A stretch of 64,000 nt of DNA from NCBI RefSeq assembly GCF_030684315.1, contig NC_081381.1, positions 32,656,784-32,720,783 on the forward strand, in the 5' to 3' direction. This document shows positions 1,191 to 60,000 of the stretch, piece after piece (within the stretch, counting starts at the first letter, position 1; every line of letters starts with the position of its first letter). Source of the DNA: Stegostoma tigrinum. Its lineage: Eukaryota. The notes under the pieces were generated by a model that saw nothing but the letters and a program-made list of their open reading frames with translations, was not told where the DNA came from and did not search any database. The translations under genes and the position numbers were made by a program.

Positions 1191-3441
1191 CATAGAACAT
1201 AGAACAATACAGCGCAGAACAGGCCCTTCGGTCCTCAATGTTGCACCGACCTGTGAACTAATCTAAGCCCATCCCCCTACACTATCCCATCATCATCCAT
1301 ATGCTTATCCAAGGACTGTTTAAATTCACCTAATGTGGCTGAGTTAACTACATTGGCAGACAGGGCGTTCCACACCCTTACCACTCTCTGAATAAAGAAC
1401 CTGCCTCTGGCATCTGTCTTAAATCTATCACCCCTCAATTTGCAGCTATGCCCCCTCGTACAAGCCAACGTCATCATCCTCCGAAAAAGACTCACTGTCC
1501 ACCCTATCTAATCCTCTGATCATCTTGTATGTTTCTATTAAATCCCCTCTTAGCCTCCTTCTCTCCAATGAGAACAGACCCAAGTCCCTCAGCCTTTCCT
1601 CATAAGACCTTTGCTCCAGGCCAGGCAACAGCCTGATAAATCTCCTCTGTGCCTTTTTCAATGCTTCCACATCCTTCCTGTAATGGGGCAACCAGAACTG
1701 TATGCAATATTCCAAATGAGGCCGCACTAGCGTTTTGTACAGTTGCAGCATGACATCACAGCTCCGGAACTCAATCCTTCTACCAATAAAACCTAACACA
1801 CCGTAAGCCTTCTTAACAGCACTATCAACCTGGGTGGCAACTTTCAAGGATCTATGTACATGGACACCAAGATCCCTCTGCACATCCACACTCCCAAAAA
1901 TCTTTCCATTGAGCCAGTATTCTGCCTTCCTATTATTCCTTCCAAAGTGAATCACCTCACATTTATCTGTATTAAACTCCATTTGCCACCTTTCAGTTCA
2001 ATTCTGCCGTTTATCCAAGTCTCCCTGCAACCTGCAACATTTTTCAACACTGTCCACCACTCCACTGACTTTAGTGTCATCTGCAAACTTACTAACCCAT
2101 CCACCTATGCCTGAGTCCAAGTTATTTATAAAAATGACAAACAGCAGTGGTCCCAAAACAGATCCTTGTGGCACAACACTAGTAACCAGACTCCAGGCTG
2201 AATATTTTCCATCAACTACCACTTGTTGCCTTCTTACAGAAAGCCAGTTTCTAATCCAAACTGCTAAATATCCCTCAATCCCATGCCTCCACATTTTCTC
2301 CAATAGCCTACCATGTGGAACCTTATCAAAGGCTTTACAGAAGTCCATGTACACTACATCAATTGCCCTACCCTCATCCACATGCTTGGTCACCTTCTCA
2401 AAAAACTCAATGAGGTTTGTGAGACACGACCTGCCCTTGACAAATCCTCTCTGATGAAGGGTCTAGGCCCGAAACGTCAGCTTTTGTGCTCCTGAGATGC
2501 TGCTTGGCCTGCTGTGTTCATCTAGCCTCACATTTTATTATCTTGACAAATCCATGTTGACTATCTCCGATCAAATTGTTGCTTGCTAAATGATTATAAA
2601 TCCTATCTCTTACAATCCTTTCCAAAACTTTTCCTGTTTGTTGGTAGCTTGTATTCACTTATGGAGCCATACAGTTTTGAAACAGACCTTTTGGTCCAAC
2701 TTGTCTACGCTGACCATGTTCCCAAACCAAACTAGCCCCACTTGCCTGCATTTGGCCCACATCCCTCTAAACCTTTCCTTTTCATGTACTTATCCAAATG
2801 TTTTGGATGGAAGGCTCACAGGTCTATAATTACTTGGGTCATCTCTACTGCCCTTCTTGAACAAGGGCACAACATTTGCAATCCTCCAGTCCTCTGGTAC
2901 GAAACCTGTAGACAATGACAACTCAAAGATCAAGGCCAAAGGCTCCGCCACCTCCTCCCTAACTTCCCAGAGAATCCTCAGAAAAATCCCATCTGGCCCA
3001 GGGGATTTATCTACCTTTACACCTTCTAGAATTGATAACACATCCTCCTTACTAACCTCAATCCTTTCAAGTCTAATAGCCTGTATCTCAGTCTTCTCCT
3101 CTACAATATTCTCCTTTTCCTGAGTGAAAACAGATGAGAAATATTCGTTTAATACCTGTCCGATCTCCACCGGGTCCACACACAACTTCCCACTTCTGTC
3201 TTTGGCCCTAATCCTATCCTAGTCATCCTTTTATTCCTCACATACCTATAGAAAGCTTTAGCGTTCTCCTTTATTCTACCTACTAATGACTACTCATGTT
3301 CCCTCCTTGTTCTTCTTAACTTTCTCGTTAAATCCCTCCTAGCTAATCTGTAACTGTCCATCGCCTCATCTGAACCATCTCGTCTCAACATCACATAAGC
3401 CTCCCTCTTCGGCTTAACAAGAGATACAATTTCTTTAGTAA
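1191..3441 (-). mobile_element. 5'-truncated CR1 (HER1-type) LINE with frameshifted RT
   Basis: ORFs contain KSPGPDG, NYRPVSL, DFCKAFDKVPH, PQGSVLGP, KFADDTK, RPHLEYC; (TTCTATG)n 3' tail near 1191-1206. Confidence 0.95.
2448..2541 (+). mobile_element. 94-bp Penelope-type terminal element with hammerhead core, inserted in CR1
   Basis: 12-bp TSD cttgacaaatcc (2436-2447 / 2542-2553); CTGATGA-aGGGtctaggCCC-GAAAC-GTC at 2451-2478. Confidence 0.8.
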
Positions 3442-3869
3442 ATTACTGTAACATGTAAAACAGAGTTGGTTTCTTTGGTGTCTACTGTCCTGCATGTTTA
3501 CCAAGGCATGATCTGGTTGGTGTTTCTGTTTGAATATGCTTATTACATTCTCAATTTTCTCAGCATCTGATTGAAGAACACTGCAAAAGTATAAACGTTT
3601 AGCACCACCATTCTAAACTGTATCTATAATCAGATTTACCAAAAGCACACCATTTATTGTTTTGCAATATATTTAGAATCTCATAAATCCCCATATGTCC
3701 AATTTCCAGAAGCAACTAATTTTTGTATCTTAATTCTCACTGAGTTGATCATTGGGCAAGGTCAAAGTTGGTCTAAAGATAGGATAGAATGAAAAGGGAG
3801 GGATAATCACATGAATTGCATTGCCTTGCAGGTAACAGGTTATTTCTTAATGCTGACAGTTGAAGAATT

Positions 3870-6800
3870 TGCAAAAAGAGGAACTGCATTTCTGGAGCAG
3901 CGCAGAGATCAGGCTATTGTTGATTTTATTTTATGTAATGAGAAAAGGCTAATTAATAGCTTTGCTGTAAAGGAGTCTTTGGGAAAATAATAACCAGAAT
4001 GTGAAAGAATTAAGTTAATTTAAAAGAATTCACATTATGTTTGAATATGATACAGTTTATTCTGAAACTGAGATCTTAAATCTGAACAATGAAAATTATG
4101 AAAGTACAAACAGCAACATTTTTACAGTAAAATATACTACAAGATTTGATGATTGATAGGCAATGGCTAGTATTTAAAGAAGTACTACATGATCTACAAC
4201 AGAACTATATTCCTTTAAGACACAAAGACCCAGCGGTAAAGGTGAATTAACTGTGACTAATAAAATAATTTTCAGATCGCACTCAACCAAAGCAAGTTAC
4301 TGTGGGGATACCAGAAAAACTGGGAGCAATTTCGAAGCCAGTAAAGGTCAACAAAGAAATTGATAAAAAAAAAGAGAAGAGAACAGGACTTATACAATTC
4401 ATGGTAGGCCCTGGGTAATGTTGTAAAACAGAGGGACCTAGATGTTCAGGAACATAATTCATCAAAATTTGCGTCACGTGCAGGCAGGGTGGTCAAAAAG
4501 ACATTTAGAATGCCTGCCTTCATTGCTCAGACCTTTGAGTATAGAAGTTAGGATGTTATGTTGAGGCTGTATAGGACATTGGTGCGGCCTTTTCTGGAAT
4601 ACTGTCCCCAGTTCTGGTTACCCTGCTGAAGGATATTATTAAATTGGAGAAGATTCAGAAAAGATTTACCATGAATGGAAAATTTGAGTCATAAAGATAG
4701 GTTGGGACTTTTTTCAATGGCACTTAGGAGGTTGAGAGATGACTTTATAGAGGTTTATAAAATCATGAAGGACATAGATAAAGTGAATAGCAAGGTTCAT
4801 TTTCCTAGGGTGGGGAAGTTCAAAACTAGGGTGGATATTTTTAAGGTGAGAGGAAAAAAATTTAAAAAAGGACATCGGGCAAATTTTTTAGACAGGGAGT
4901 GGTTCAGGTGTGGAATGAACTGCCAGAGGAAGTGGGGGATGCAGGTATAATTATAACATTTCAAAGACTTTTGAATAAGTACATGAAAAGGAAACGTTTA
5001 GAGGGATATGGGCCAAATGCAGGCAAGTGGGACTAGTTTGGTTTGGGAACACGGTCAGCGTGGACAAGTTGGACCAAAGGGTCTGTTTCAAAACTGTATG
5101 GCTCTATAAATGAATACAAGCTACCAACAAACAGAAGGGCACATTGTAAACATTTACTCAGGTATGTGACAAAGAAAAGTTTAGCTTAGAAAATGTGGGT
5201 CCACTATAGGTGGACACAGGAGAATTTACAATGGAGAACAGGGAGACAATGGAGGAGTTAAACATTTACTTTGTGTTGAAATTACCGAAGCTCTCCTGGA
5301 ATCACAAGGCACCAATGGACCTATGAAATTGAGGAACTGAAAGAAATTTGTATCAGTAAAGCAGTGTTCCTGAAATTTAACTAGATTAAAGGTTTTTGAA
5401 TACTGTGGACCGAATGAGCAGCATCACAGAGGATTGGAAGAAGTGTCTATAGGGATAGTGGCTGCATTGGTAATTATTTTACAAATTTATACATTCTGCA
5501 TACACTCCTACAGACTACAGGAAGCAAATGTAACCCCACTAATTAAGAAGGAAGGGAGTGGGAGAATGGAAAACAACAGACCTATTAGTGTGACATGAGC
5601 AACAGTGAAAATGTTAGAAACTACTGTATAAAGGAGGGATAACTGGACACTTATAAAATAATGGTAAAATTAGGCAGAGTCAACACAGATTTTTCAGAGG
5701 CAAAGTTTGATAAATCTGTTGGAGTTTTGTTTGAGGATGTTACTTGTAGCCAATTTTCCCCTAACCTGCACAGCAGACACCAATTGGTGTGCTGACGCTT
5801 AAGATCTGCTGTCATACATGGACCTTAGACGTCTGCACTGTGTTAGGAAAATTTAGAGAGAATGTAGTTTTTATGCATCAGTAAAGGAGAACCAGTAGAT
5901 GTGGTGTATTTGGATTTTTAGAAGTTTTTGATAAGGTCTCACATTGAGGATTAATATACAAAATTAAGAGTGTTTGGTACTGGTATTAATATACTAATAT
6001 GGACTGAGAACTGGTTCACACTCAGAAAACAGAGAGTGGGAATCAATGAATCATTATCAGGATGGCAGGCTGTTACTAGTGTTTTCTGCAAGGTTCAGTG
6101 CTAGTGCCAGAGCTGTTCACAATTTATGTCAATGATTTGAATGTGGGACCAATCGTAGTATTTTGAAATTTTCTGACGGTTCAAAACTAGTTGAGAATGT
6201 AAGTTGTGAGGCAAATTGAAAGAAGATTCAAGGGGACTTAGACAGACTAAGTGAATGGGCAAGAATGTGGCAGATGGAATATATTGTCAAAACATACAAT
6301 GGTGTCCATTTTAATGGAAAAAATAGAAAAGGGAATATTTATTCATAAACGAAAACAGAGACTGCTGGAAAAACACAACAAGTCTGGCAGCATCTACGGA
6401 AGGAAATAAAAATAATGTTTTGGGTCCAGTTACCCTTCTTCAGAACCCTTCTCTCGACCCTTCTTCAGGCAATATTTATTAACTTGTAAGAGGCTGAAAA
6501 TGTTGTTGTTAAGAGGAATCTTGATATCACTGTTCATGGGTCATTAAAAGCTAGGATGCAGGTGCAATAATCAATAAAGAAGTCATATACAAGCCTGTAT
6601 CACACAGGGACTTGAGCAGAAGGTATCTTGGTGTAATTGTATACAGCCTTGGCAAGATTGCGCCTAGTGTCCTGTGTATAACTTTGGTCTCCTTATCAAA
6701 GTAAGTTTATGCCTGTTGCAGAGGGAATGCAACAGCGCTTCACCAGATTAATTCCTAGATGGTGGGATTGTGTTAGAAGGAGAGTTTGAGGAAACTGGGC

Positions 6801-6980: not shown

Positions 6981-7747
6981 AGGCAAGGGATGCAAAAACA
7001 GGAGAAGTACCTGGACCCATGTCTTCTCTCCCTGGCCCTGGATACAAATCAATTAGGATCCCAGCTACAGATTGCAAGCCAAAATATGCTGTGTGCACCA
7101 GGATATCAGATGAGGACCAGGGAGGGCCTAGCCATTAGGCAAATAGTCAAAATACACCTATTGCCTGGAATTGGATGTGAGAAAGCCACTAAGGTGGGAT
7201 AGCTGATGATTGATGTCCATAAACAACTTCATGGCAGTGAAAAAATGTCTCTGATACAGAATCTCAAAATCTCACGATCAAACAAATTGGTTGTTCCCAA
7301 ACCACTTCTAAATTTAGTCTCTAAATCAACTATAATGCCAGTTCATGAAATGATAAGTATGATCTATTGGTTTGGTATGTTTATATTCACTCAATAGATA
7401 AAACAAGAACTATGTGTGTTACTATGGAGCAAAATAAATATTAAAAACGGACAAGAAAGGACTGAGACACTTTTCCCATACTTAAATTTGGAAATAAGGA
7501 GGCGAAGTTAATTGCTTTTCTCCAACAATTTCTGTTTTTGTTTCATACCTCCAGCATTCACAGTTCCCTGTTTTACACAGATTTCAAAATTTGTTATGGA
7601 AACAACCATTCACACATATTTAATTTGGCCAAAGTTGCAGACTACATATAGGATTGTTAGATTGGGACCAGTCACACACAAAACAAGATTTTACTTTTAA
7701 AATCTCACAAGGGATTGAAAATGCGCCATCCTGCTGACAGATCTCAC

Positions 7748-10677: not shown

Positions 10678-10823
10678 CGTAGAGCTGGATGAACACAGCA
10701 GGCCAATCAGCATCATGGGAGCAGGAAAGCTGATGTTTCGGGCCTAGACCCTTCTTGGCCTGCTGTGTTCATCCAGCACTACACCTTGTTATCTCAGATT
10801 CTCCAGCATCTGCAGTTCCTACT
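10678..10823. mobile_element. Fold-back Penelope-type terminal element
   Basis: 14-bp TSD atcctgtaac(g/a)tta (10664-10677 / 10824-10837); internal inverted repeat. Confidence 0.75.
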
Positions 10824-13662: not shown

Positions 13663-13742
<80 letters not shown>

Positions 13743-21508: not shown

Positions 21509-21604
21509 AAATATATTATATATCTCAAAGCACTCTACAGCTAATGAAATTGCTTTAAAGTGTAGTCAATAATGAAGGAAATGCACCAGCAAATTTTCAC
21601 AGAA

Positions 21605-22442
21605 TAAGATATTGACAGGATGCAGAGATGGGCTGAGAGGTGGCAGATGGAGTTCAACCTGGATAAATGCGAGGTGATGCATTTTGGAAGGTCGAATTTG
21701 AAAGCTGAGTACAGGATTAAGGATAGGATTCTTGGCAGCGTGGAGGAACAGAGGGATCTTGGTGTGCAGATACATAGATCCCTTAAAATGGCCACCCAAG
21801 TGGACAGGGTTGTTAAGAAAGCATATGGTGTTTTGGCTTTCATTAACAGGGGGATTGAGTTTAAGAGTCGTGAGATCTTGTTGCAGCTCTATAAAACTTT
21901 GGTTAGACCGCACTTGGAATACTGCGTCCAGTTCTGGGCGCCCTATTATAGGAAAGATGTGGATGCTTTGGAGAGGGTTCAGAGGAGGTTTACCAGGATG
22001 CTGCCTGGACTGGAGGGCTTATCTTATGAAGAGAGGTTGACTGAGCTCGGTCTCTTTTCATTGGAGAAAAGGAGGAGGAGAGGGGACCTAATTGAGGTAT
22101 ACAAGATAATGAGAGGCATGGATAGAGTCGATAGCCAGAGACTATTTCCCAGGGCAGAAATGGCTAGCACGAGGGGTCATAGTTTTAAGCTGGTTGGTGG
22201 AAAGTATAGAGGGGATGTCAGAGGCAGGTTCTTTACGCAGAGAGTTGTGAGAGCATGGAATGCGTTGCCAGCAGCAGTTGTGGAAGCAAGGTCATTGGGG
22301 TCATTTAAGAGACTGCTGGACATGCATATGGTCACAGAAATTTGAGGGTGCATCCATGAGGATCAATGGTCGGCACAACATTGTGGGCTGAAGGGCCTGT
22401 TCTGTGCTGTACTGTTCTATGTTCTATGTTCTATGTTCTATG
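21605..22442 (+). mobile_element. Young 5'-truncated CR1 LINE with an uninterrupted C-terminal ORF
   Basis: 241-aa stop-free ORF at 21620-22345 with CpGs retained and about four TTCTATG tail units; inserted into an older SINE. Confidence 0.95.
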
Positions 22443-23274
22443 ATAATGACTGGATAATCTGTTGTTGTGCTGTCGACCAGGTGATAAAATTGGTCGGAAC
22501 ATCGAAGAGAATTTTCTTGCTCTTCTTTGAAATAGGACCATGGGATTTTTACAACCTCATGAGACAGCAGACTCATCTCCCAATCCACTTTTAATACCAC
22601 ACTGGAATGTCAGTTCAGACTTTTATGCCCAAGTTTCTGGAACCAGACCTAATCCCACAATATTCTGAATCAAAAGTAAGGTCTAAGCCTCTCGACTGGC
22701 TGTGTTCTGCAACCTAATACATTTGCTAAATAAAACTTGGATATCTGAAACAAAACCTGTTCTGTTGATATGTCACTGGGCTTGAAACATTAACTCTGCT
22801 TTCTTGCTACAGATGCTGCTAGACCTGCTGAGTTTTACCAACAGTCATTTTTTGTCATAAATTTTCTAAACTTGTATATAGTTTTCTTTGAATTTTCTTT
22901 TGAAATAGGCTTGAATTTTAACCAACAGTCTCTTGTGTGGAACCTTACCAAGTATCTTCTAGAAATCCATACAAACCCTATTCAAAGATATTTCTCTGTG
23001 AAAATGAGTGTAGCTATTTCCTCAACATATTTAATTAGTAGTTCATATTAATCCTGTTTTGCTGGAATGAAACCATAAATTTTGATACACACTTTAGATC
23101 ACCAATCCATTTGTGTTCAAATGAAGGACCTGAAGTAGTATAATCTAAAAAAGAAAATAACTCTAAGTCTTAAAAGCTGTTTCAACAATAATAAAGCATG
23201 TGCAGATACAAAGAACAGTAAGTCATATCAATATTGCCAAGGGTACAGAGATCAGCTTAATTACACAAATGTCT

Positions 23275-25280: not shown

Positions 25281-25587
25281 GTTTAGAATTCACGGCTTGA
25301 GAGAAGATTTGTAGCTCGGGTACTGGGTGTAGATGTTGGTGTGTTTGCCAAGCTGGGAAGTTTGATAGCAGATGTTTCGTCCCCTTCTTAGGTGACATCC
25401 TCAGTGTTGTGGAGCCTCCTGTGAAGCGCTGCTGTCTTGTGCCCATTCAAATTTGTATGGTCCAGTTTTTGCTCCTTCTGGTAGGTGCTGGTTATGCCTC
25501 TGCATTGTAATGGTTGGTATATTGAGTCTAATTCAATGTGTTTGTTGATGGAACCTGCAAATGAATGCCAAGCGTCCAAGAATTCCC
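25281..25587 (-). mobile_element. Penelope-like element 3' end (endonuclease C-terminal tail plus pLTR with hammerhead)
   Basis: EFLDAWHS..SINKHIELDSIYQPL resembles the end of a Poseidon/Penelope ORF. It is followed by CTGAGGA-tGTCACC..GGGGAC-GAAAC at 25404-25374. Confidence 0.7.
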
Positions 25588-25953: not shown

Positions 25954-26066
25954 AGATGCAGATGCTGGAGTTAGAGATAACACAGTGCGGTGCTGGAGGA
26001 ACAGCAGGCCAGGCAGCATCAGAGGAGAGTGAAGTTGACATTTCGGGTCAGGACCCTTCTTCATAA
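25954..26066 (-). mobile_element. Penelope-type terminal element
   Basis: 11-bp TSD aact(g/a)tataag; degenerate hammerhead core. Confidence 0.7.
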
Positions 26067-26608: not shown

Positions 26609-26727
26609 GCTGAGGAAGGGGGTGAGGAATTGTTCTGAGGAAGGGTCACTGGACCCGAAACATGAACTCTGTTTTCTCCTCCACAGATGCTGCCAGACCT
26701 GCTGAGCTTTTCCAGCAACTTTGTTTT
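26609..26727 (+). mobile_element. Penelope-type terminal element with hammerhead core
   Basis: 9-bp TSD tatccctaa; CTGAGGA-aGGGTCactgGACCC-GAAAC at 26635-26661. Confidence 0.75.
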
Positions 26728-28163: not shown

Positions 28164-28292
28164 TGTTCTGAAGAAAGGTCATTGGACCCGAAACGTTAAC
28201 TCTGATTTCTTTCCAAAGATGCTGCCAGACCTGCGGAGCTTTTCCAGCAATTCTTGTCTTTGTTTCAGATTTCCAGCATCCTCGGTTCTTCT
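28164..28292 (+). mobile_element. Penelope-type terminal element with hammerhead core in the CCDC30 5' region
   Basis: 12-bp TSD tttctgaagccc (28152-28163 / 28293-28304); gtt-CTGAAGA-aaGGTCattgGACCc-GAAAC-GTT-aac. Confidence 0.8.
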
Positions 28293-41000: not shown

Positions 41001-44000
41001 GAGTTTAATTTGGATAAATGTGAGCTATTCCATTTTCGTAAAACAAACAAAGGCAAGACTTATACAATTAAAATTAGAGCCTTGGATAGTGTTGTAAACA
41101 GAAAGACCTAGGGTTTAGGTATATAATTCTTTGAAGTTTTCCATCACATGTAAATAGGTTGGTTAAGAAGGTGTTTAACATGCTTGCCTTCATTGCTCAG
41201 TGCTTTGAGCATAGGAATTGGGACGCTGTCTTGAAGTTGTACAGGATGTCAGTGAGGTTTCTTCTGGGGTACTGTGTCTAGTTCTGGTCTCCCTGTTACA
41301 GAAAGGATAATTATTAAGCTGGACAGGTTCAGAAGAGATTTGCCAGGATGTCGCTGGAAATGAGGATTTGAGTTATGAGAAGATGCTGGATAGGCTGGGA
41401 CTTTTTCCAGTGGAGCAAAGGAAGTTGAGAGGTGACCTTAGAGGTTTATATTTAAAAAAAAAGAAATTCCAGGATATAGATAAGATGAATGGTAGGTGCC
41501 TTCTCTAAAGTGGGGAATTTCAAGACAGGGGGCATATTTTTAAGGTGAGAGGAGAAAGTTGTGGTTAGTTGGTTGGCTTGTTCTGCAGATGTTTCATCAC
41601 CCTGCTGGATAACATTATCAGTGCAGCATGGAACTGGACCCCACGTACACTCCAGTACACAGGAAAACCGGGAGTGAGGTAACCCAGCCTGACAGACCCC
41701 AGACTTTAAAAACCAGGTGGCAAAACACACCGTTTCATCGAAGGCTGCACTGATGATGTTACCCAGCACGGTAATGAAATGTCTGCGGAACATTTGAACC
41801 AGCTCAACGAGCCAACCAACCACAACACCCACAACCCGAGCTACAAATCTACTCCAAAACCTCTTGAGAGGAGAAAGATTCAAAAAAGACGTGGCAGTTT
41901 TTTTAACAGTGTGGTTCATGTTTGTGGAATGAACTTCCAGAGGAAATGGTGGATGCCCATACAGTTAGTGTTTAAAAGACATTCAGATAAGTACATGAAT
42001 AAAATGCTTTGGAGGGAAATGGGCCAAGTGCAGACAGGCGGGATGGGTTTAGTTCAGGATTATGGTCGGTATGGACTAGTTGGACCAAAGAGACTGTTTC
42101 CAAACTGTATGACTCTATGACCAATTTTCTTATCCTCTCATTCAGTACATTGTCATCTTCTGTAGCTGTTAAATGTTCATTGAGGAATCCTGCACGTCCA
42201 TGTTCACATGTTGTGAATTTGTCATTTCAAGATTGTTGCTTAGGCATCCAGCATTTGTGTTCTGGTATGAGGGATCTTCTTCATCAGCGAATACCTTGTG
42301 AATAATGTTATGTCTTAAAAATTGCAATGAGATCCACTTTAGTAATGCCTCCATTATCGTTCTTTGTATCATCCACGATGCAGTAAGTTTGGATCTGAGT
42401 TGCAGATTTCCTCAACATCCAGCCTTTTAGAACCAGTAGATGTCGATACTGGGATATCTAGATTGCTGAATGTTTATCTTTGCTTGAAGTCTCATCTCCA
42501 AGTGACTCTGTGGCAATGCATGACCTGTTTGAAATTTTCTGTCACTGATCCTGGGAGTAATGTGAATGCAGTAAGCAGCAGATTCCAGATACCCTTACAA
42601 AACGTGGTATGTTATTGCACTTTGGCTTCAAGTTTTGCAGATTACTTAATTGGTAATCTCTTCATTTTGACATGAGAATCCTCAGCTAGAAAATTATGAT
42701 TGTGAATTTTAGATTTTGTGCTATTTTGCCATAATGGATATTTTGCAGTAAAACACAGGTATACAAATTTACTGTGACTGGGTTCCCAGTTTCTGGCTTT
42801 TTATACACAGGTGGTAAGGGTCAGGAAGAGGCACTGGCAGAAGCTGAGGAGGAAGAACAAGAAGCTTTGAGTATTCAGAAACGTTTGACAGAGAATCTGA
42901 CTGAGGAAGACTTTGGACTTGACTTTATTCAGGTAACCAGTGATGGATATTGAGGCTTGAAAGTGGTTCTTCCTTCAGATTTGGTTAAAAGGAAGTTATC
43001 AGAACAGAACTTTCACTTCCCGATTCCTATCAACCTTGAGCAAATAGTTCCCCAACAATTTATTTTTTTTAGATGCAACAGAAGTAACGTTGACATCCCT
43101 GGTATTCTTCATTTATTGTGTTTTTTTTAATGCTAGAAGTGCTGGCCTATACATTGTTTTCTTTCTTCCACATAATCTTCCAACGCAGTGTTAGGAAGAA
43201 TGAGCAATGAGGCAAGATGTCTTCAGGGCTGCCAGAGTCCCTTCAACTGTCTCCCAAAGAAGGCAGGATTTTCAAGAAGCGCCAAGCTGAAGATTTGATT
43301 ATTTGTGTGTTCTTGTCACAGGCATTTGCCCAGGAGCAGGCAACTGAGAAAGTAACTCAAAAGGATCTGAAAATAAAAAAGGATTTGAAGAAAATGTCAC
43401 ATAAAGAGCAGATGAGTCTGCTGAAGAAAGAGTCACCAGAACTTCTGGATCTCATTCAGGACTTCAAAACAAAGGTTAACAAAATGTTGAAAGCTTCTCT
43501 TGAAAGTATTCATCTGTCTGTTTTATTTCTGAATGATGTTAAGTGGCATATAAATTGGATTATAAGTAAACCTAAAATACAGTAAAACAGATGTGTGCCA
43601 TATTGCCAAAAAAGGACTTCATGTGCAATATGTTCTTTTTATTGTTGGAATGTAAACATTACTAGCAGAGGCATTTTTATTGGCTGTCTCTCACTTACCC
43701 TTGAGAAGGTAGTGATGAATTGTGTTTTGTCATATAAAGTGTAAAGAAAAATATGTTGATCATTAAAGGAAATGGGACTGTTTTTTCCAGTAAAGTTTCC
43801 CAGAGCACTTTGGAGTGTTGAGATGTTTATTCAGGCCAAATGCACTTTATCTACTTCTCAATTATCTGATCTGCGAACTTTCTCAACAGGCAAACTTTTG
43901 CTTGACTGGCTTACCAATGGCCTGTCCAACCTGTATTGTATTAATGATGCTGTAAGATGGGAAAAGGGATGAATAAAGCTGAAGTGAAAGTTTAACTTTA

Positions 44001-47000
44001 ATGCACAGGATTTACTTATTTCCAGTTTGCTCTTGTGAATTTGTATTGTACTCGAGGCAGAGTCTCTGTGTTCTGAATTCAATAATTTTTTTTTAACCTC
44101 TCCAAGTTGTAGTTGTTGATGTAGAAAGCAAGGAAAAATTGGTGACAGCTCAGCTTTCAGGAAAGCGTAGATTGGGGGACACTGCTGAATCCATGCACCT
44201 TTTAGAAACTTTTTTTGCTAAAGTTAAATTCAAGTGCATCCTAGCTCAGACACAAATCTGGAGGTTTTACTTTTCATCAGTTGCCTCACCTATGGGATGC
44301 AGCATCTGAAATGTGAAACTTGCAGTAGTACAACCTCCTTGATTTCTTTCCCCTTTTTTTGCAGGAAAATGTCCGACTTTCACTAATTGTAGAAATCTTC
44401 CTTTACATGAGTTATTAAGAAGATAGAAACCTTGGACATTCCTATCTTTTTATTTACATACTGATTGTTAGGATTGTGCACTGCTTGTTAAACCACTGTT
44501 GCTAAGTTACACTCAGCAGTCGATTAATTTCTGATTTGTCGTTTTGCAGCTTGCTGAGTTGAGGGATGAGTTGCACCCACTGATAGAGATGGTGCGGAGT
44601 GGGAAGATACCTGCAGGGAAGGTATGATGGAACAAATAACTGAGTGCGATGAAAATCAACAGAGACTGAACCATCTGGATCATTCTGTAATAATTGTTCT
44701 GCCTTGATTCACAGGGTGCCAGCTACGTGCAGACCAAGTACCATCTCTACCTGAAGTATGTTTCTTCAACAGTACCTTAGAATCTGTATCTTTTCCAAAA
44801 ACTGGTGGGGAATGGGAAACCAAGCAGATGCTTCAAATGCAGGATATCCAGCATGTTAATCACTAGTTGCTATATGTGGCTAATTGCATGTGGCTTATTA
44901 GTAAATAAAAGTCAGTAATGGCCATGTGCTCTAAATTTACATGATGTCTGTACGTATCTTTTCACCATTTTATAGGAAAGGAGAAAAGTGTCCAAGTATT
45001 TTAATTGGCTGCATGTTATTCTTTGGTTACTGTTTATTTGATTATTGTCTAAAATGATAATATCACTATTGGAAATGTTGGCTTTCAGCAACATATTGAG
45101 GTGTAGGAGCAGTCACCGTAGAATAATCACTAATGAGGGAATGTGAGATTTTCTTGTATTATTCTACAAAGAGTGTGAAGTACTGTACATAAAAATAATC
45201 TGTACTTCCAGTAGCAGTGCCTTCCATATTCTAAATATTCCACTTTTTTGCTTTTTGGTTTAAACTTTTCAGACATTTATGATATTCATGTTAATGAAAT
45301 CTCTCTAATCCATAGTTACTGCACAAACATCAGTTTTTACCTAGTACTGAAGGCCAAACGGATCCCAGTGCAGAGTCACCCCGTGATTGAGAGGCTGCTC
45401 ACCTACAGAAATGTGAGTATACGACTGTTTAACTGCACCGGGGTCTTTAGTTTTCCTCTCTGTATCCATGGCTGTGGTCACAGGTATATCTTGGGTCCGT
45501 TTCAATCTGTCATTCAGAATCTAGTTCCTACACACTGACTAAGATTTAGTTCTGGAATGCTTCTCTGATTTGTTTTATTCTCTTCAACCAATATCTTCCC
45601 TAGCCCAAGCAGCATCTACCTTATTCACTGGGCTTAAAGCCCCTGGTTAGATTACTGAAGAATCTAACTAAACTGCAGAATTGGGCTGAAAGATGGCAAA
45701 TGGAGTTCAATGCGGATAAATGTGAGGTGATTCACTTTGGGAAGAATAATAGGAAGGCAGAATACTGGGTCAATGGAAAGATTCTTGGTAGTGTGGATGT
45801 GCAGGGGGATCTTGGTGTCCGTCTACATAGATCCCTGAAAGTTGCCACCCAGGTTGATAGTGCTGTTAAGAAGGCATATTGTGTGTTAGGTTTTATTTGT
45901 AGAGGGATTGAGTTCCGGACCCGTGATGTCATGCTGCAACTGTACAAAACACTAGTGAGGCCTTACTTGGAATATTGTGTGCAGTTCTGGTTGCCCCATT
46001 ACAGGAAGGATGTTGAAGCATTGGAAAAGGTGCAGAGGAGATTTACCAGGATGTTGCCTTGTCTGGAGCACAGGCCCTATGAAGAAAGGCTGAAGGACTT
46101 GGGTCTGTTCTCATTGGAGAGAAGAAGGCTAAGAGGGGATTGAATAGAAACATACGAGATGATCAGAGGATTAGATAGGGTGGACAGTGAGAGTCTTTTT
46201 CCGAGGATGATGACTTCAGCTTGTACAAAGGGGCATAGCTACAAATTGAGGGGTGATAGATTTTAAGACAGATGTCAGAGGCAGGTTCTTTACTCAGTGG
46301 TAAGGGCGTGGAATGCCCAGCCTGCCAATATAGTTAACTCAGCCACATTAGGGGCATTTAAACAATCCTTGGATAAGCATATGGATGATGATGGGATAGT
46401 GTAGGGGGATGAGCTTAGATTAGTTCACAGGTTGGCGCAACATCGAGGGCCGAAGGGCCTGTTCTGCACTATATTGTTCTATGTTCTATACCCTCTGGTT
46501 TGGGTAAACTGGTTCCCAGGTTAACATTAATAAGGATAAGATGCTGGAGAAACACAAGAGGTCAGACAATATCAGTGAAGAGGGAAACTGATTTAGAATA
46601 GAATAGAAATTTATGGGCACTTTGATACAAAAAATACAGTGAAAATTTTTATAAGTTGCCCCACCACGGTGCATATATTAGTGACAGAAATCATTCATGA
46701 TAATTTTTAAAAACAAGTGAAATTAAGACAAAGTTCATCATACATTTGAGGTGTAGAGCTGGATAAATACAGCAGGTCAAGCAGCATCAGAAGAGCAGGA
46801 ATGCTGACGTTTCAGGCCTAGACCCTTCTTCAGAAATGCTTCTGCAGCTGGAACACCTGCAGGCTGAAGATGAAAAAGTCCTCCACGTGGGGACAAGACC
46901 ACCATGCCAGAACAAGACTACTGTACAAGGAGACCAGCACGCTGTGCCGAGATCTCCGTCTCTTCTCCTTCAGCTGCCAAGGCCCAGTGCCGTGCTGGAG

Positions 47001-50000
47001 CCTTGCCTACAAATCCGGACGGGGGCATAGTTAGCCTGGGACCTGCATCTTACTTGGCGGACTGGGGTGGAGCTGCGTCCGGTTCGTCCCAGTGTTTCTG
47101 CTGCCACCAGAGGCCACCTCCCTCACCTGCCACTCTCCAGACCCAAAAGAAAAGACAACCAAGGATAAAGAAAAGAAAGAAAGCCAAACAAAAGAGAGAG
47201 GAGAAAGAAAGCCAGTGGGAGTTGGCAGGCCTTGGCTTCAGCCTACTCTGCCACCATCTTGATGAATTATACAATTTGTGTCTTATGACTCTTCTGCAGA
47301 ACTGAATTGTTTCTGGCGGACTTGATTTTAATTCTGTTTACCTCTTCAATGCTGCTGCCCAACTTGTTCAGTTTCTCAACAGTTTCTATTTTTGTTTCAG
47401 ATTTCCAATAATCATATATTTTGCTTTTAACTCTGGTAAATGATGCTTGGATTTAAAAGCAAGTCATGCTGATTTTTCTCTTCTCTGTTGCTGCATTTGA
47501 CAACTGGCTTGTCATTGCAGCTGATCAATGATCTAGTTGGATTGGATGACAAGCTGTTGCCTGAAATCCAGCAGCTTTTGAGCCAGAATAGTCTGGATCC
47601 TGGGTCAACCACGGAAAAAGATAAACTCATCTCTGAGGTTAAAAAAGTTCCAATTCGATTGAGCAGGCAGCCTAAAGCTGGACAAAGAACAGAAGCAAAG
47701 GTAAGATAGATATGGTTTTCATTGCACACTAGCAAGGACAGAATCCAGATTTTGAAGAATGAGTGGTTATTGTTAATTGTGTAAAGTTTTCAAAATTTGA
47801 ACGTGGCAGGACCCCGAGCTGTATCCCACATTGTGATCGCTGTTTTCACACTTGTTTAATACTAAAACTGAAACTCTTTTATGGTGAGCTCTGACAGACC
47901 GAATCTTTTCAATCTATCTTTTAATCATTGTAATGAGTAGAGAAATTTTGCTCTCTATTTTCTGCTTTTCCATACATTCTTAAGTTTACAAGATCTGTGT
48001 TTTAATCTAGGCCACTGATCTCACAGTTTCTGGGGACTCCGAGTCTGATACAGATGAAGAAGCAGCATTCCAATATTATAAAGATATGGAGGAGAGGCTG
48101 ACTCAAAAGAGAAAGAGAGCTCAACGTGACAGGTGTTGATCGCTTACACATGGAATATGCTTGCATATGAATATGATATAAAACATGTCCTAGACTGTTC
48201 CCTTAATCGGGATAATGGCTATTGGGATATGCACTGCACAGCATTTAAACTGATTAACTTACTGGGGATGAATGTCATGAAAAAAGCATTGTCTCACATG
48301 TTAAAAAGAGTGCTGCCTCCAAGATGGGAAGGTTTGACATAGTGGAAGCAGAGATGTAAATAGGCTTTCAGAAAGTATTGATAAAGTACTGTATTATTAG
48401 AGAATAGAAATTACAAGTAGTCTAACGATATTTTTTAAAACTGATTTATACGGTGGGAACTGAATGAAGTAACAACAGGCATTTTCTCAAGACGATTGGA
48501 AATAGGTTGCTGTGTCTTCAGCGTTCTGGCCTAAACAGTTGTGTCACAATTTGTGCACAGTACTAAAATGGGATGTGTATTAATTCTCAGGACCAAAGTG
48601 ATCTTGATGAGATAAGGGAATGGTCAAAATAGTGGGAGATGGAATTCAGTGTTGGACATGAAGTAGTACATGGGTCTGGATGACCTGAGGAGCTGCAATC
48701 ATCATCTGATTATCGTCCTACTCGCATTCCTTCAAGGTGATACTGTCCCACTTCTGGGACCTTTTGAGTCCAGCTTTATCAGAAGTGTGGAGTGCAGTGC
48801 CCCATTAAGAGCTCTGTTGAAGTGGAGTAGAGTCAAGAGTAGATAGGGCATATCCATTATCTTTACAGCACCAGCTGCCTTCTGGTAAGTGTAAAGGTTC
48901 AGTATGAATGTGTGGGTCACACTTGGGTTGAGAGATTGAGAAGCAGTGCAGAAAACAGGGCTTACTGTGAATGATTTGGAAGGTCAGTTGTGTACGTAAT
49001 TTGTCCAGATGATAAGTAAAGCTCATGTAGTCCCAAAGGGCCACAGGGCTGCTCTCTCATTAGAGCGGGTTGACTGGTGGTGAGTTAACCTCAGGGTCAC
49101 AATATCTCAGGCAGCACTGAGAAGGGGACCTTCATGGTGACATCAGCTGGTACGAGAATTAAACCAGTGCTGTTAGTGTCACACTGCCTCACAAACCAGT
49201 TGTCCAGCCAACTGAGCTAACCAACCCTCACAATAAGTACGTGTACATTACCTGAAGTTTCCACCTCTAACTGAGTCAGAGATATTGCAGAAAATATTTT
49301 AAACTTCCTGTGCAATTTTCATGGGTCAGTATATCAGAACTTCCAACAAGGATCTCAGTAATGCATTTGGTCTCCAGTGATCTGGAAGTCGGAAAGCTCG
49401 AGCTACATTCTGAGGGAAAAGTGCCCGATGAGAATGAAAAAGAATAATTTTGAGGGTTCAGATTCACAAAACTTTAAACATTGGCATCTCAAATGGAAAT
49501 GCTTTCATGAATGGAATATTGGTCACCATGGCAAGAGTTATCAGGGGTTTAGTTTGTATTTTGATGGTAAATTTATTTTTACTGTAGGAACCACATTGAG
49601 GTTTCAGAGAAGGACAGTTCAGATTTGTCAGAATGTTGCCGGATATGATGAAATACAAATCGGAAAAGATTTTGTGAAATTCGGGCTAATTTTGTAAGAA
49701 GGAACGAGATTCGGTGATGGTTTGATGGACGTGTTTAAAGTATGATGGAGTGGGATAGAGTAGATAGCAAGTGTTTTATATGATTTCTGGTTCTAATCGA
49801 AGAATCAACAACCTGTGTCTCTGGAACCAACTATGGCCGTTTAGCATCTCATTTGTGATTTCCCATTCATTTCCAATTGGATGACATGAACACAAAGGCT
49901 GAGAAAAAATTAAATCAAGAAAAAACTAAATTGTTTTTATTGTGGCAATGAAAAGCTAATTATTGTTATTGTATTTCATTATTCCAAATAATTTTTTTAA

Positions 50001-53000
50001 CAAAAAGCATGTTGTACTCTAACTGAACAAGTTTGTGACAAAGCTACATTATGGGTGTTATGTATATAGCCTTTGGTTTGAGGAATAACTTTTACAGTTG
50101 TGATCGTCATTGTACCTTTATTGCTGGGTTAAATGCTTCTCAATTAGAAGCTGTTAAATTGGGAGAAAAAATGGTAAAAGAAATTGTCTTAATTTTTGTA
50201 TCAAGTTTTTTGATTTAAAGATCCCTACTTACAAAATTGTGTAGTTAAGTTCTGATTTGTCTTTTTGACATAACAGAAAATACATGTGCTGAATTTATTT
50301 GTGCAAGTAATACATTCTGCACTTGGTAATTTGCCAAATATTTGATTTAGCAATTTTGAATATTCTACTTGTGACTCCTTGGTTTTTTTATCATTTGCAT
50401 TTTTTTTCTTTTGAAGAGGCTGCTCAGGCTGTTGATCTTTGTTCTAGACTCTTAAATGAAAGAGATATCAAATGTGAAATGAGTGAAACTACTTTTCTCA
50501 TTTCCAGTCAGTGATTCTGGATTACACAGTTGGACTTTGACTTAGGCAGACCATGTCTACATTTAAGAATTGGTAGATGGTTGATAGAGTGAATAAGGAT
50601 GGCAGCAGGGTGGGTATACACAGGAGTGATCTTAAGATTAAAAAATCAAAATGAACTGCATTGCTCACTTCCATGTAGTAATGCTTATATATTTCTGGTT
50701 TGATTTCCCAACAAGGATCCAGTAAGGATACAACAACTCAACTTAGTGTTGTTGGTACACTGAGGAGGCAAAAACAGCATTTGCTCGGTATAAGTAATCA
50801 GAATGCGAAACTGCCCAAAACTGGTTACCTGTTTACCGTGACAAGGTTTAGCTCCCCTCTAAATAGAAATTTTTGGCTCATCAATTTTCATTTCCTTGCC
50901 ACTTTGCAGAAAATATTCCCAATGAGAATTTTTTGGACATAGGAATTCGCTTAACTGTGACATTGTTCTGCGCTTCTGTATCGAATAATTTGCTGTGATT
51001 AAATACCTGATCTCAAACATGAAAAGCAGCTGCTCAGAAAACCTACCATGCAGAACTTTATTGTAAAGTAGGGAAAGGGTTCATTTGAGAAATAATGTGT
51101 TTACGCTAGATTCTTCTACTCCTGACTTGATCCCTGACAGCTGGAATGTCACCCAACACATTTCCTCCACCTTCTCCCATCTCCCCTACCACGTGCACCT
51201 TCGGTATTGATGACAATAAATGAAATGTTGATTGTATTCAAATGCAGTAACATTGGGTTTTGTATTTCAGCAATGAGGACAGTCCTGTGGTAAAGCAAGT
51301 ACTTGGTCCAGATGGAAAGAGAAAGATCACATACCAGGTTTCTAGCTCCATTTTAACATATCTTTTTGCTGCTTTAGGGCTACATTTTTAACCATTTCTT
51401 TTTCTGTATTGCCTGAAGCCATGATATTTAGTATTACTTGAAACTTAAGCTGTTTCTTCATGTTTATATTTGAGTTGTTATTTGATTTTAAAAGACATTT
51501 CACAATCCTAAATGTCAGTTGAGTATTAGTCAATATGCAGCTCAACGTTTTTGCTGTTTAACATAACATGTTACTTAGTAAATGGCACTGCAAGAGTGAT
51601 TTTGATTCCTCTTTTTGTTTTTCTGTCTGAGGAATGTCCTTTTGTTAACCAACTGCCTGGTTGGATGGGAGTTTTCCATATGAAGAATCTAAACTTTGTT
51701 AGGATCCCAGCTGACAACCGTACCAGAAAAGTCAATTCCTGAACGAAATTTGACACGATAGATCATAGACTTTTTAATTTTTGCAGGTGGTTAGTGTGGA
51801 GGTTTAGTTACTGAAACATTGACAAAGGCTACAAATGTTCTTGAACAAATTAACATGTGTCGCACAGAAGAAAAAGCAAACAATAAGAGTTTAGAAGGAT
51901 CTTAACATAGGTTTAAATGCTATGTTGCTATTAATTTCCCAGCAATATCTTTTCAGTTATTCAAATCCAGAGAAATATCATTTCTATCTCAACTCTTTAG
52001 TACTTAGCCAACTCTTCAGTTATCCTTCCTGGACTGCTGAGAGCATTTTGTTTTCTCTCTAAGTCTGCTGTTTTCAATTCCGAGGGCCTCAACCTCTTTC
52101 TCATTCAGGCAATTCAAAACCTCTGTATAAACTCCGGCTTTGAAGCTTCACAACTAAACTGTTCGGACAGAACAGGTTTTGATTCTTCTGAACTAAACTT
52201 ACCTCTGATCTGTTTTCCTGTGTTATAAACTCAGCAGTGTAAAGATTTCATCCTTTATACTACAGTCTTTAGGCTAGACACTGAAACAGATGCCTCCTGC
52301 CTTCAGTTCACTATTCCAAGTGACCTTTTATTTTTAAAGGTTACCTTCACAAAACTGAAATCACACATCTGTTTTATTTCAAGATTTTGAAATGATTTAC
52401 ACAATTTTTATACACTATAGAGCAGGAAATCTAATCAGACTTTGGCATAGAAAACTGTGGTATTGAGAACAAAAAATGCAGAAGAATCTCAGCAGGTCTA
52501 CCATCGTAATTAGAGAGAGAAACTGAGTTAATGATTCGAGTCCAATGTGTCCAAATCATCAAAACTCACTCTTTTTTTCTTTCCATGATGCTGCCTGACC
52601 TCCTGTGTTTCTCCAGAATTTTCTGTGTATTAATCTTTTTAGTACAGCAATGTGCCACTGAATCTTTCAGTTCACAGTTGGTTACAGAGATGTTTCTTGT
52701 AAGCACATCTGTTAAAATTGTCTCTGGATGCTCATCAAACTATGTGCTATCTTCTGCAGATTGCTAAGAATAAAGGTCTCACACCCAAAAGGAAGAAGAT
52801 TGACCGTAATCCCCGAGTCAAACACCGAGAGAAATTCAGACGTGCTAAAATACGAAGGAAGGGCCAGGTAAGCAAGGGAGTCCCCCCAGTAGATTTAAGG
52901 AGTTGAGAATTGTCTTCATTTTAAATAATGAGGCTTGTTCACATCTTAAAATAATTTGTCGGGTTGTGGGAGTGCCTCAGCTATTCACTGGCAGGAGAGA

Positions 53001-56578: not shown

Positions 56579-56618
56579 TTTATTGAGTATAATGCCAGAT
56601 CTCCCAGCTGGCTTTATT
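56579..56618 (-). terminator. PPCS polyadenylation signals (two AATAAA on the - strand)
   Basis: tttatt at 56613-56618 and 56579-56584, about 110-145 nt past the stop codon. Confidence 0.6.
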
Positions 56619-56724
56619 CACATATGCAAGTTTTCATTTTTTTAAAAAAAAAGTAGCACTTTAACAATTCTCTCTCAATTATCATACAATTATTCCTCTA
56701 ACTCAGCTGCGTCATGAAAAACAT

Positions 56725-57057
56725 CTATTTAGGATTGTTGCTTTTCTCTATAAAATTAGTGTGGCATTCACTCAAGTGTTTCACAATCTTCTCTTCGATT
56801 TCATGGTGTTGCTTCACTTCGTTCTCTGAAAGTGCCAGGTCAGTTTGAGAATCAGCAGTTACTATGACAACAAACACCCTCCGTGTTTCAAGAGCGTTGG
56901 CAACTACAACCTGATGTCTGTAAGTTTCTAAAGCTTTACGTGCTCGTACAACCAGCTGTGAAGGATCAGTCTCCAACTTGAAGGATGTGATAAATGCCTG
57001 AGGAGCCCAGTCTTTCACGAGAGGGGTAAGCATCTTGGGAACCATTTGCATAGTTAG
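56725..57057 (-). CDS. PPCS: PPCS exon 3 (stop TAG)
   Basis: ttttttatag| acceptor; [27 protein letters not shown]. Confidence 0.96.
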   Translation of the reverse strand, partial: LTMQMVPKMLTPLVKDWAPQAFITSFKLETDPSQLVVRARKALETYRHQVVVANALETRRVFVVIVTADSQTDLALSENEVKQHHEIEEKIVKHLSECHTNFIEKSNNPK

Positions 57058-60000
57058 CTATAAAAAAGAAGTTCTTTTAAAGGAAAAAAAAACAAAGCTT
57101 ACATCATATACATTTGCAAGACTTTGAAAGAAGCCTTGCTCTAAAGGTTCTCCCATGTCTTAAACAGTTTTTGCGTGTTCGCAAAGTTTCAACTGGAAAT
57201 AGAAAATTATGCAAGTTTAACTCAAGCTGTTAATTTTACTGTGAGAGAGGATTATGATTGGTGTTCCAACAAGCACTGCTTTTCAGGTATAGTACAGCTC
57301 TTCCTTACCTGCAGAGGACTAGCACCTGACTGAATTTTATGTTCTGGCATCTCAGAGGCAGGAATGAAAAAATCAGACACAGCTGCTGCGAGGTAGAACA
57401 TGGCTTTTGGTCCTGCAGAACAAGAGTTACAAATCACCTGATTTATAAAGGAATGTTGCCTAAATATGAAAGGGTACTTTGCATGCTTAGATTTTCACAT
57501 TCATTGTGTACTATGATTTGTAGGCGTTATACTTTATTAAATGGAACCAAATTACATAATGGGTTTGAGCACTTGTTCTTTGCTCATAGACTAAACTGGA
57601 AGAGCAATCTACCTAAATTCTGGATACTTGGTCTTTGTGGACACCCAAATCTAACAAAAAAAAATTACATTTATAACTGGAATGAAGTGACTACCCTTAT
57701 AAAAGAACAAACCGAAGTAATCACATTCCTGACTTGCGTGCTGTAGGTAATGGAAAGTTTTTTTTGTGCAAATTTAATGCAAGGACAAGTTGTATTTCCA
57801 GTTTCATTTTTTTAAAACATGAAAGTTAATTTCCTAGTTTATATAATCCTCCACATGGAAATCTAAATAGAGAAAACAGCTTTCAGCCTAACATCCTTTA
57901 GTTTTGACCAGGCTTCTTCTTTGCGTACCATTTGTCCATTATAAATTGCCCCAAGACAGTTCTCTAGTACTAAGGGAGTTCTGCACTGCTTAAGGTGTAT
58001 CTTATGGGTGCAATATTAAACTGTGGTCCTGTCTGACCCTTCAGGGATGCAAAAGATACTATGTGGTATCACTTAGAAGAGCTGGTGTGGTCAGCAGAAC
58101 GTCCTGGCCAATATTTATCTCCTCACTAATAATGAATCTGGACTTTGTTTCACTGCTATTTACTGAAAGCATGGCAGCCAATAATGAAGCAATTGAAATA
58201 TGGAATCCCAGAATTTGGTGATGTGCAAATATTTCAAATAGTTGTGGGATTGGTGGAAGCTAATGAGATCAGCAGAGCCAAGAGATAGAGAAATTAGAAA
58301 ATAAGGATGAGACAATTTTTAAAATTGAAGTACTGCTGAACTAGGACCCACTGAAGTCGGCTTAGGATTTCATGTAGCTTAGAATACAAATCATTGAATT
58401 TGGGGTGAGCTCCAGGTTACGGAGTAGAAAGCAGAGAAATGTGAACTAATTTCATTTTGGCAGGAAAAATGAGAAGGCACTACAAAATAATGGATACACT
58501 TTAAAGGAGGTGCAGGAGCAGAGGGATGTCCAGATGTATATGCATGAAATATTGAAGGTGGTGGGTTAGGTTGAGAAAGTGCTTCTTAAAAAAAAATTCA
58601 TAATTTTCCTCCTTGCATTTTGTTATTTTGCTGTTAACATTTGAAGAATAGCATACTTCCTTTTACGGGACATTAGTAAACCAGATGGGTTTTTAAACAC
58701 ATAAGAGAAAAATACTGCAGATACCAGACATCTGAAACACACAAAATACTGCAGAAATTAAGGTCTGGCAGCATCTGTGGAAAGAGAAACTGAGTTAACA
58801 TTTGAGTCTCCTATAACGTCCATGCTGAAGGAGCATAACCAGCTCAATATTGACTTTTTCTCTCTTTAGTTGTTGCCTGCCTGAATTTCTCCAACATTTT
58901 CTGGATTTTATATCAATCTGGCAGTTTCACAGTTACCATTACCAATATTTAGATTTTATAGTCAATTAGTAGGTGGATAGGCATGTCGCAAGATGGAGAC
59001 AAACAGTTTACACAGACAGTAATAGGTTAAGCAGTTGTGCAAGAAGTTGGCAAATTGTGCATAATGTGAAGCTGTTCATTTTGGAAGGGAGGGGAAAAAA
59101 AGCCATTTAAATGAAGAGTAAGCTGCATCACAAAGGAACTTGGGGGTACCTGTGCATGAATAGCACAGATGCAGCAGGTATCAGGAAGACTAATGGAATG
59201 TTGGCCCTTATTTCAAGGGGTTTGAAGTATAAGAGTAGAGAAGGGACTCTTGTGGTGTAGTAGTTGTATCCCTACCCTAGACTGAGAAACCCAGGTTCAA
59301 GTCCCATCTGCTCCAGAGGTGTGTAGTAACATCTCTGAATAAGTTGATTAGGAAAAACAAGTTAATAGGAAGTCTTATTGCAAAATGCAAGGTGGTAGTG
59401 AGACCACAGCTGGAGTATTGGGTGTAATTTTGGTCTTTGATAAGTAAGGAAAGATATCATTTAATTGGAAGCAATTCAGAGGAGGTTCATTAGGATGATC
59501 CCTGCTACGGAGGGATTGTCTTACAAATAGTGTCTAAACAGGTTTGAACTCTACTCAGTGGAGTTTAGAAGAGGAGGTAATCTCAGTGAAACACACACGA
59601 TTCTTCAGGGGCTCGACAGAGTAGATGCTGAGAGGATTTTTTTCCCCTTTTCGGGAGAGTCTCAAACCAGAGCTCACAATCTCAGAATAATGTGGAACAA
59701 ATTTGAAATTAAGATGAGGAACTTCTTGAGGGTTGCGTCTCTTTGGAACTCCTTGCCACAGAATTGTAGGCAGAGTTCTGGTATGTAGCCAAGGCTGAAA
59801 TAGATTACCCTAGTAGGATTAAACTTCAGGTCTATGATTTGTGGAATGTGAACATATGAAATAGGAGCATGAACCATTTGGTACTTCGAGCCCACTTCAC
59901 CATTCAATGTGATTATGGCTGATCTTCTACCTTAACTTCATCTTCCCACAGAACCCCAAAATCGATCACCTTCAGTTCGAAAATATTCACCCTCTGAACA

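Follow-up and report, generated by a model that had tools for sequence, protein, structure and literature searches.

Short pseudo-LTR ends of Penelope-like elements in the shark Stegostoma tigrinum carry minimal hammerhead motifs and are probably by-products of insertion

Results

We examined a 64-kb stretch of contig NC_081381.1 of the shark Stegostoma tigrinum (the window, meaning the whole stretch at its full length), which is crowded with short insertions that carry a minimal hammerhead ribozyme motif. These insertions represent the pseudo-long terminal repeat (pLTR) ends of endonuclease-positive (EN+) Penelope-like elements (PLEs), belonging to two Neptune-like groups and one probably Poseidon-like group. 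Three features that a preliminary description of this DNA had overlooked explain the form of the copies: their 3′ ends fall at two fixed points about 35 nt apart that delimit a tail, their inverted pairs carry one tail, and their 5′ ends have a fixed boundary. The notable feature is a sharp pile-up of 5′ ends at the front edge of the hammerhead, approximately 30 nt after a TATA-like box. Taken together, the sequence patterns suggest that the short copies, which we will refer to as stubs, are probably dead by-products, namely run-off copies of the 5′ end of PLE mRNA, rather than a separate family of mini-elements.

The preliminary description had counted about 15 short insertions at a density of one per 4-5 kb. 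All ten of the intervals that it listed were located in the window, and blastn searches using these copies as queries raised the count to 19 loci, equivalent to one per 3.4 kb. A random genome sample of 670 kb contains 142 pLTR ends (about one per 4.7 kb), 101 of them no longer than 320 bp. Extrapolation from large contigs only would give roughly half a million short copies genome-wide. Target-site duplications (TSDs) had been proposed for nine of the listed copies, and direct repeats are indeed present at all nine. Four of the nine lie in a repeated long interspersed nuclear element (LINE), which allows comparison with paralogues of the host LINE that lack the insertion. At all four sites the overlap with the uninterrupted paralogues is exactly the called TSD (12 bp in 15/15 pairs, 11 bp in 15/16, 9 bp in 9/9 and 13 bp in 14/14), and these are therefore true insertions. 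TSDs were also found at 20 of 42 young loci sampled in the genome, compared with 11 of 200 controls, and range in length from 8 to 17 bp with a centre at 12-16 bp.

Longer genomic copies continue from these ends into coding sequence for a reverse transcriptase (RT) and a GIY-YIG-like domain, which bears out the link to Penelope that was first proposed from the short copies. The 94-nt insertion at position 2448 shows 100% identity in 40/40 scored genome matches and matches the termini of long coding copies letter for letter. When 30 of its loci were fetched, 17 shared an upstream body of 273-1500 bp, four belonged to one tandem array, six were short inverted pairs and three were short solo copies. 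At least four sequence families had been suggested; the four quoted types of stem II are all present, but by homology the copies form three groups, namely A, which includes older subfamilies, B and C. The body of group A encodes an RT with a YIDD motif, a Cys-rich linker and a GIY-YIG-like domain, matched by the Pfam families RVT_1 (E = 5.9e-4) and GIY-YIG (E = 8.3e-4), neither of which reaches the curated cut-off; no match to the group A protein was obtained among solved structures. The group B parent, represented in the window by the copies at 26609, 28164, 6344 and others, has 55% identity to group A over 340 aa. Both groups contain a zinc-finger-like CX2-5CxxC motif located between RT and EN, a linker motif described as defining the Neptune and Nematis clades (PMC8557442), and we therefore place groups A and B with Neptune/Nematis. 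Group C (41559, 25301) continues into RT-like, YIG-bearing frames as judged by eye, lacks the linker motif by eye, matches group A weakly (E = 0.002) and gave no relevant match in a Pfam search. On the basis of motifs, group C is presumably Poseidon-like, and the choice between the names Neptune and Nematis is likewise an assumption based on motifs. The longest open frame seen, of 523 aa, is 5′-truncated (no dedicated search was made for a full-length copy with pLTRs on both sides). A separate locus (L041:5672-8724; G000:C4, about 89.99 Mb) is a head-to-tail array of ten units, 308-310 bp in length, all of which contain a group A pLTR end and the start of the hammerhead core. By eye, this array is flanked as a whole by a 14-bp direct repeat, and it resembles a non-LTR retrozyme; shorter similar arrays are present at L087 and L054.

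A strict descriptor of the minimal hammerhead was run on the window, on the 670 kb of random genome sequence and on shuffled sequences. It gave three matches in the window compared with none in 50 shuffles, and 45 in the random genome sample compared with none in five shuffles; the motif is therefore not due to chance. The copies display CUGANGA, an extra nucleotide, a paired helix II, GAAAC-GUH and a helix I, which together with covariation characterise the PLE-type minimal type I hammerhead. Among 38 natural copies chosen for having the core, 84.9% of the cells in stems I and II are paired, versus 66.8% after shuffling and 15-48% in slid controls, and two-sided changes occur at 7/8 stem pairs, mostly between the three groups and hence representing few events. 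This covariation analysis supports the earlier assignment to a minimal type I hammerhead with paired stems. Only three of the 19 window loci pass the strict descriptor (2451 on the + strand, 46833 and 25404 on the − strand), and of these only 2451 and 46833 keep the ACGT palindrome. CpG-type changes are found in the palindrome at 26635 and 41750, and the first pair of stem II is mismatched at 28168; most hammerhead copies in the window are decayed. No hammerhead family was detected in Rfam at E ≤ 5, and the palindromes gave only microRNA-like matches below the gathering score. In 47 young arms, non-CpG changes affect the core (5/470) at a rate comparable with that of downstream DNA (34/1786; p = 0.32), and the CpG of the palindrome is subject to decay (10/94). 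Since the core mutates like the DNA downstream of it, constraint would have acted on the source elements and not on the copies. Folding prediction gives a non-hammerhead hairpin for the 2448 monomer (−11.4 kcal/mol). In this predicted fold of positions 2448-2483, the CUGAUG core pairs with the strand containing the cleavage site, an inactive alternative that may represent an off state.

The 3′ ends of the arms fall into two classes. Counted from the first base of the core, 37/87 young group A arms end at +88..97 and 44/87 at +121..126, and two classes about 35 nt apart are likewise seen in group C, with a broader distribution in group B. The PLE tail is bounded by two internal RT start sites, and a PLE protein has been described as cutting both strands (PMC11167929). 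Exactly one tail is present in 57/59 short inverted pairs of group A. Arm haplotypes agree in 42/59 of these pairs, compared with 26.5% expected between loci, and in 7/59 pairs the arms differ at 2-5 of five diagnostic sites, although one of the seven is probably alignment run-out; the pairs derive in part from targeted searches, and these rates are not genome-wide estimates. The pairs with discordant arms (L121, L124, L135, L142, L207 and L219) suggest that two RNA templates were used per insertion. The exact centre junction of the palindrome at 36794 recurs at 60 genome sites. In 30 of these inspected by eye, no fewer than four subfamily haplotypes are represented and the tail lies sometimes on one arm and sometimes on the other (16 versus 14), which rules out a clonal MITE-like subfamily (MITE, miniature inverted-repeat transposable element); this centre is a recurrent joint that is formed anew each time. 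A single-strand fold-back as the only route to inverted pairs is ruled out by the same either-arm position of the tail and by the discordant arm haplotypes.

For the 5′ ends, group A arms with at least 85% terminal identity were counted in DNA that had not been picked for group A, comprising 88 random 10-kb stretches (one all N) and the flanks of group B and C loci, 1.21 Mb altogether. Among 126 arms, 62 are long, 33 start at −8..+1 of the core, 31 start inside and none starts at −36..−7. In group B, 34/66 arms start at −6..0, 23 of these 34 at −6..−3. The group A parent has the motif TATTTAT about 30 nt upstream of the 5′ peak, in the group B parent TATAAA lies 29 nt upstream of an initiator (Inr)-like TCAGTT at the peak, and the short arms of group C start about 30 nt after a TTTAAA motif. 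Some 35 nt ahead of the core at L169 and L172, the TATA box of the group B parent overlaps a branch-point-like motif that is followed by a pyrimidine run and CAG, an arrangement that can be read either as TATA plus Inr or as a 3′ splice site. Among 8457 non-templated cases genome-wide, the base preceding the group A start is G in 5699 and A or T in 2758, and G precedes the start in 12/23 group A peak arms. For group B, the first 100 matches listed, inspected by eye, gave G in 44, A in 39 and T in 17. The G before the group A start fits copying of the cap. When haplotypes were defined at the five diagnostic sites, five common ones were found, each present in both long and short copies. Loci L287-L316 (G000:C1) are group A arms that begin at the predicted cut, often as perfect palindromes, and L312 and L314 join the cut site to sequence downstream of the tail.

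Discussion

The stubs are most readily explained if the pLTR promoter starts RNA just before the hammerhead, the 5′ pile-up being the putative transcription start 27-33 nt after the TATA-like box. Reverse transcription begun at the internal sites of the 5′ pLTR copy would run off the end of the RNA after 95-130 nt and leave a stub, whereas reverse transcription begun on the 3′ pLTR copy would yield a long, randomly truncated insertion. Each of the two start sites would serve to extend one of the nicked strands, and the cDNAs would join head to head, sometimes from two RNAs. The hammerhead would then fall within the RNA's first 35 nt and would mostly be copied uncut, as a passenger that is constrained in the source elements and not in the copies. 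A further reading, possible but doubtful and again drawn from sequence patterns, is that the stubs, in their hundreds of thousands, constitute a fossil record of insertion in a living animal, in which the main class would mark the capped start to within a few bases, the inverted pairs would reflect priming of both strands together from two RT start sites, about a tenth of them on two RNAs possibly held by the hammerhead palindrome, and the class that starts at the cut site would reflect real cleavage by the ribozyme in the germ line.

Several observations weigh against an origin of the stubs as run-off copies. The pile-up is weak in group C, with 4/21 arms at −16..−18, 3/30 at −14..−18 (one of them an internal deletion) and 2/12 in three counts, and the group B reference is a single, partly diverged copy that could inflate the short class. 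In groups A and B the putative start coincides with the 5′ edge of the hammerhead, and the two are thus indistinguishable. The extra G could be templated by the partner arm in inverted pairs, and 4/30 inspected matches are long copies with a point change. The ratio of long to short copies varies by haplotype (24:6 versus 11:20, p = 0.007), so that short copies may to some extent have been re-mobilised. The Drosophila Penelope is described as having a TATA-less internal promoter (PMC2377424), and a stub could therefore carry its own promoter. Finally, there is a class of arms that starts exactly at the predicted cut, with 4653 pattern matches, 25 of 30 inspected being true junctions.

The last of these observations is what would be expected if the hammerhead cleaves, as a dimer or with help from protein, and if cleaved or circular RNAs were the templates of the stubs, which would in effect be monomeric retrozymes. 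The foreign base at the cut in the 4653 exact matches, the lack of evident microhomology at several of the inspected junctions, the covariation of the stems between families and the ten-unit array of approximately 309-bp units elsewhere in the genome, with a hammerhead core in each, all speak for it. Nevertheless, we regard this as very unlikely for the stubs at large: in the main class the hammerhead is retained in full upstream of the cut, meaning that it was copied uncut, none of the window loci is tandem, and insertion of an Anolis PLE in vitro needed no cleavage (PMC11167929). Moreover, in the unbiased set only 3/87 group A arms start at the cut or within 2 nt of it, against about 0.3-0.5 per nt nearby, which is not clearly above background. 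The cut also coincides with a four-base palindrome that favours joints, and 12 of the 30 inspected rows are such palindromic joints, so that the minor cut-site class is confounded by microhomology. Alternatively, the stubs might be 5′-truncated copies of full-length RNA whose boundary is an RT stop or an RNA processing site, such as structure or protein at the hammerhead edge, a C-rich run or a 3′ splice site. The boundary is the 5′ edge of stem I in groups A and B, a Drosophila intron is described as ending at the 5′ end of helix I (PMC4209133), and in the parent of group B a pyrimidine-rich stretch that resembles a branch point finishes with CAG two bases ahead of the core. However, the 23 group B peak arms that start at −6..−3 include bases of the would-be intron, there is no AG at the group A boundary, the few short group C arms end 14-18 nt before the core with a TATA-like spacing rather than at the stem, and an RT stall caused by structure would be expected where the enzyme enters it, not where it leaves; we consider this explanation unlikely.

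The preliminary description called the insertions 'SINE-sized' non-autonomous or extremely truncated Penelope derivatives (SINE, short interspersed nuclear element), of which the truncation stands. That they propagate themselves like SINEs, with an internal promoter and RT start signals and re-mobilised in trans by PLE protein, seems improbable, although fixed ends, a very high copy number and the haplotype differences in long-to-short ratio are all features that such elements would have, and there is precedent in the internal promoter of the Drosophila Penelope (PMC2377424), in the description of pLTRs in cis as sufficient for mobilisation in trans (PMC3846280) and in putatively non-autonomous PLEs described in Chlamydomonas (PMC8557442). 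Against this, no common haplotype is limited to short copies and the 94-mer is identical to the sequence with which long coding copies end; the TATA-like box is upstream of the stubs and not part of them; the letters at the 5′ junction vary between loci; and the one palindrome junction that is repeated, at 60 exact sites, spans at least four haplotypes with the tail on either arm, having formed anew. We give practically no weight to the idea that a DNA transposon gave rise to the palindromic copies as its MITEs. Their hairpin shape and the repeated central junction are reminiscent of MITEs, but the arms are unequal in 57/59 pairs, TSD length varies (8-17 bp) and the sequence runs on into RT-coding bodies, in place of the equal terminal inverted repeats, fixed short TSD and transposase partner that mark MITEs.

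Every component of these insertions is known, including PLE ends, the tail, inversion, the minimal hammerhead and PLE-derived retrozymes. Like the EN+ PLEs described as Neptune and Nematis (PMC8557442; PMC3846280), the parents here combine an RT, a Cys linker and, at the C-terminus, a GIY-YIG domain with a hammerhead-containing pLTR, and their insertions share a tail of 30-40 bp at one end, a head-to-head inverted copy, a TSD and TATA/Inr-like pLTR motifs; a tail at one end and an inverted or partial-tandem arrangement of pLTRs with a TSD are features of EN+ PLEs that recur in our copies. Unlike the insertions described in these sources, about half of the arms here consist of the last 60-135 nt only and about a quarter stop at one fixed point, the density reaches about one end per 4.7 kb, and TSDs centre on 12-16 bp compared with 8-10 bp in the rotifer. 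Inverted pLTRs, tails, TSDs, solo pLTRs and TATA/Inr-like motifs are described, and self-priming on an antisense template is proposed, in PMC3846280; the discordant arms and the tail on either side are hard to fit to one self-primed strand. The hammerheads have the extra nucleotide before helix II, the G10.1-C11.1 pair, the palindromic 15.2-16.2 positions and the absence of helix III described for metazoan PLE hammerheads (Cervera and de la Pena, 2014; PMC4209133), with shorter helices I (2-4 bp) and II (4-6 bp). In that study most motifs are single, dispersed and related to truncated PLEs, some of them being paired on opposite strands, and their in vitro activity is low; sharks are not named in its results or discussion. 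It gives about 4,000 motifs for coelacanth and about 9,000 for Xenopus, compared with 78,894 exact genome matches to the 29-mer of one family here, although the counting methods differ.

The Anolis Poseidon element PAc (Frangieh et al., 2024; PMC11167929) likewise has two internal RT start sites bounding the tail, cleavage of both strands, and a hammerhead that lies upstream of the start sites and is dispensable for insertion. The report on PAc describes no fixed 5′ end or stub class, and the open reading frame of PAc begins at stem II, whereas the group A frame that opens at the core's ATG reaches a stop after 14 codons. PLE-derived retrozymes are already known (PMC6765202), and the animal non-LTR retrozymes described recently (bioRxiv 10.64898/2026.07.22.740005), in a study that sampled one chondrichthyan, resemble the stubs in being derived from PLE pLTRs, hammerhead-bearing and non-coding, with dispersed monomers also described. 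As defined there, however, retrozymes consist of two or more tandem units that all contain a complete hammerhead, whereas the copies in the window are solo or inverted, with no tandem units among the 19 loci. We found no paper on this stub class in sharks or on a fixed 5′ boundary, in a search that was thin on subscription papers, supplements and Repbase/Dfam.

To account for the inverted ends of PLEs and the role of the weak hammerhead, published models invoke antisense self-priming or circular RNA. Where PLE ends are as frequent as one per 5 kb, such models can be tested by counting: the rule of one tail per pair, arms that are discordant, the fixed position of 5′ ends and starts at the cut site each distinguish between them. 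The stubs are a useful dataset on PLE insertion. For annotation, their proper place is among Penelope ends, and labels such as SINE, MITE, microRNA hairpin or functional ribozyme should be avoided.

Other features of the window

The 19 loci are listed in Table 1.

Table 1. Pseudo-LTR ends of Penelope-like elements located in the 64-kb window
Feature	Position	Strand	Remarks
Group A (Neptune-like) solo pLTR end, no tail	2448..2541	+	12-bp TSD, within LINE; intact minimal hammerhead 2449-2480, predicted cut after 2478
Group B pLTR end	6344..6470	-	Short duplicated extra sequence at 5′ junction; TSD 10-14 bp
Group B tail-region fragment, degenerate	7518..7566	+	blastn
Older group A inverted pair	10678..10823	both	No-tail arm -, tail arm +; 14-bp TSD
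Group B end, degenerate	22758..22846	+	Begins at hammerhead front edge
Diverged group C end with hammerhead	25301..25440	-	Core at 25404; weak further upstream piece 25505-25588
Older group A end, partial tail	25954..26066	-	11-bp TSD, within LINE
Group B end, no tail	26609..26727	+	Start duplicated at 5′ junction; 9-bp TSD, within LINE
Group B end with tail	28164..28292	+	12-bp TSD
Group B end with tail, without hammerhead	29290..29377	-	Homology to group B
Older group A end with tail	29524..29649	+	Adjoined by group B upstream piece 29656-29760 (-)
Group A end with tail, without hammerhead	36131..36245	-	Homology 36145-36237; 12-bp TSD candidate
Group A inverted pair	36794..36991	both	Tail arm left, no-tail arm right; 14-bp TSD; centre junction at 60 genome sites, several subfamilies
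Older group A inverted pair	37223..37425	both	12-bp TSD
Group C (probably Poseidon-like) inverted pair	41559..41864	both	Tail arm +; 13-bp TSD, within LINE
Older group A end, no tail	46748..46836	-	Intact minimal hammerhead, core 46806-46833; no TSD found
Group B end, degenerate	47328..47407	+	blastn
Group B inverted pair, degenerate	52469..52626	both	blastn
Group B copy, degenerate	58761..58910	homology 58761-58803 on -	Extent to 58910 from the preliminary description; opposite arm suggested by inspection only

The window also contains many LINE fragments, which we take to be CR1/L2-like, at 1192-2807, 21566-22345, 26067-26511, 40850-42118 and 45604-46489, and four of the stubs sit inside such fragments. 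Another dispersed short repeat (family D7), SINE-like in appearance, is present in three copies (12018-12111, 31301-31394 and 34174-34267), and a repeat of about 1.8 kb occurs in two diverged copies (70-78%) that lie 44.6 kb apart (17123-18903 and 61720-63508). A GC-rich open frame of 223 codons on the − strand at 60365-61036 presumably resembles the N-terminal part of phosphopantothenate-cysteine ligase, judging from a motif.

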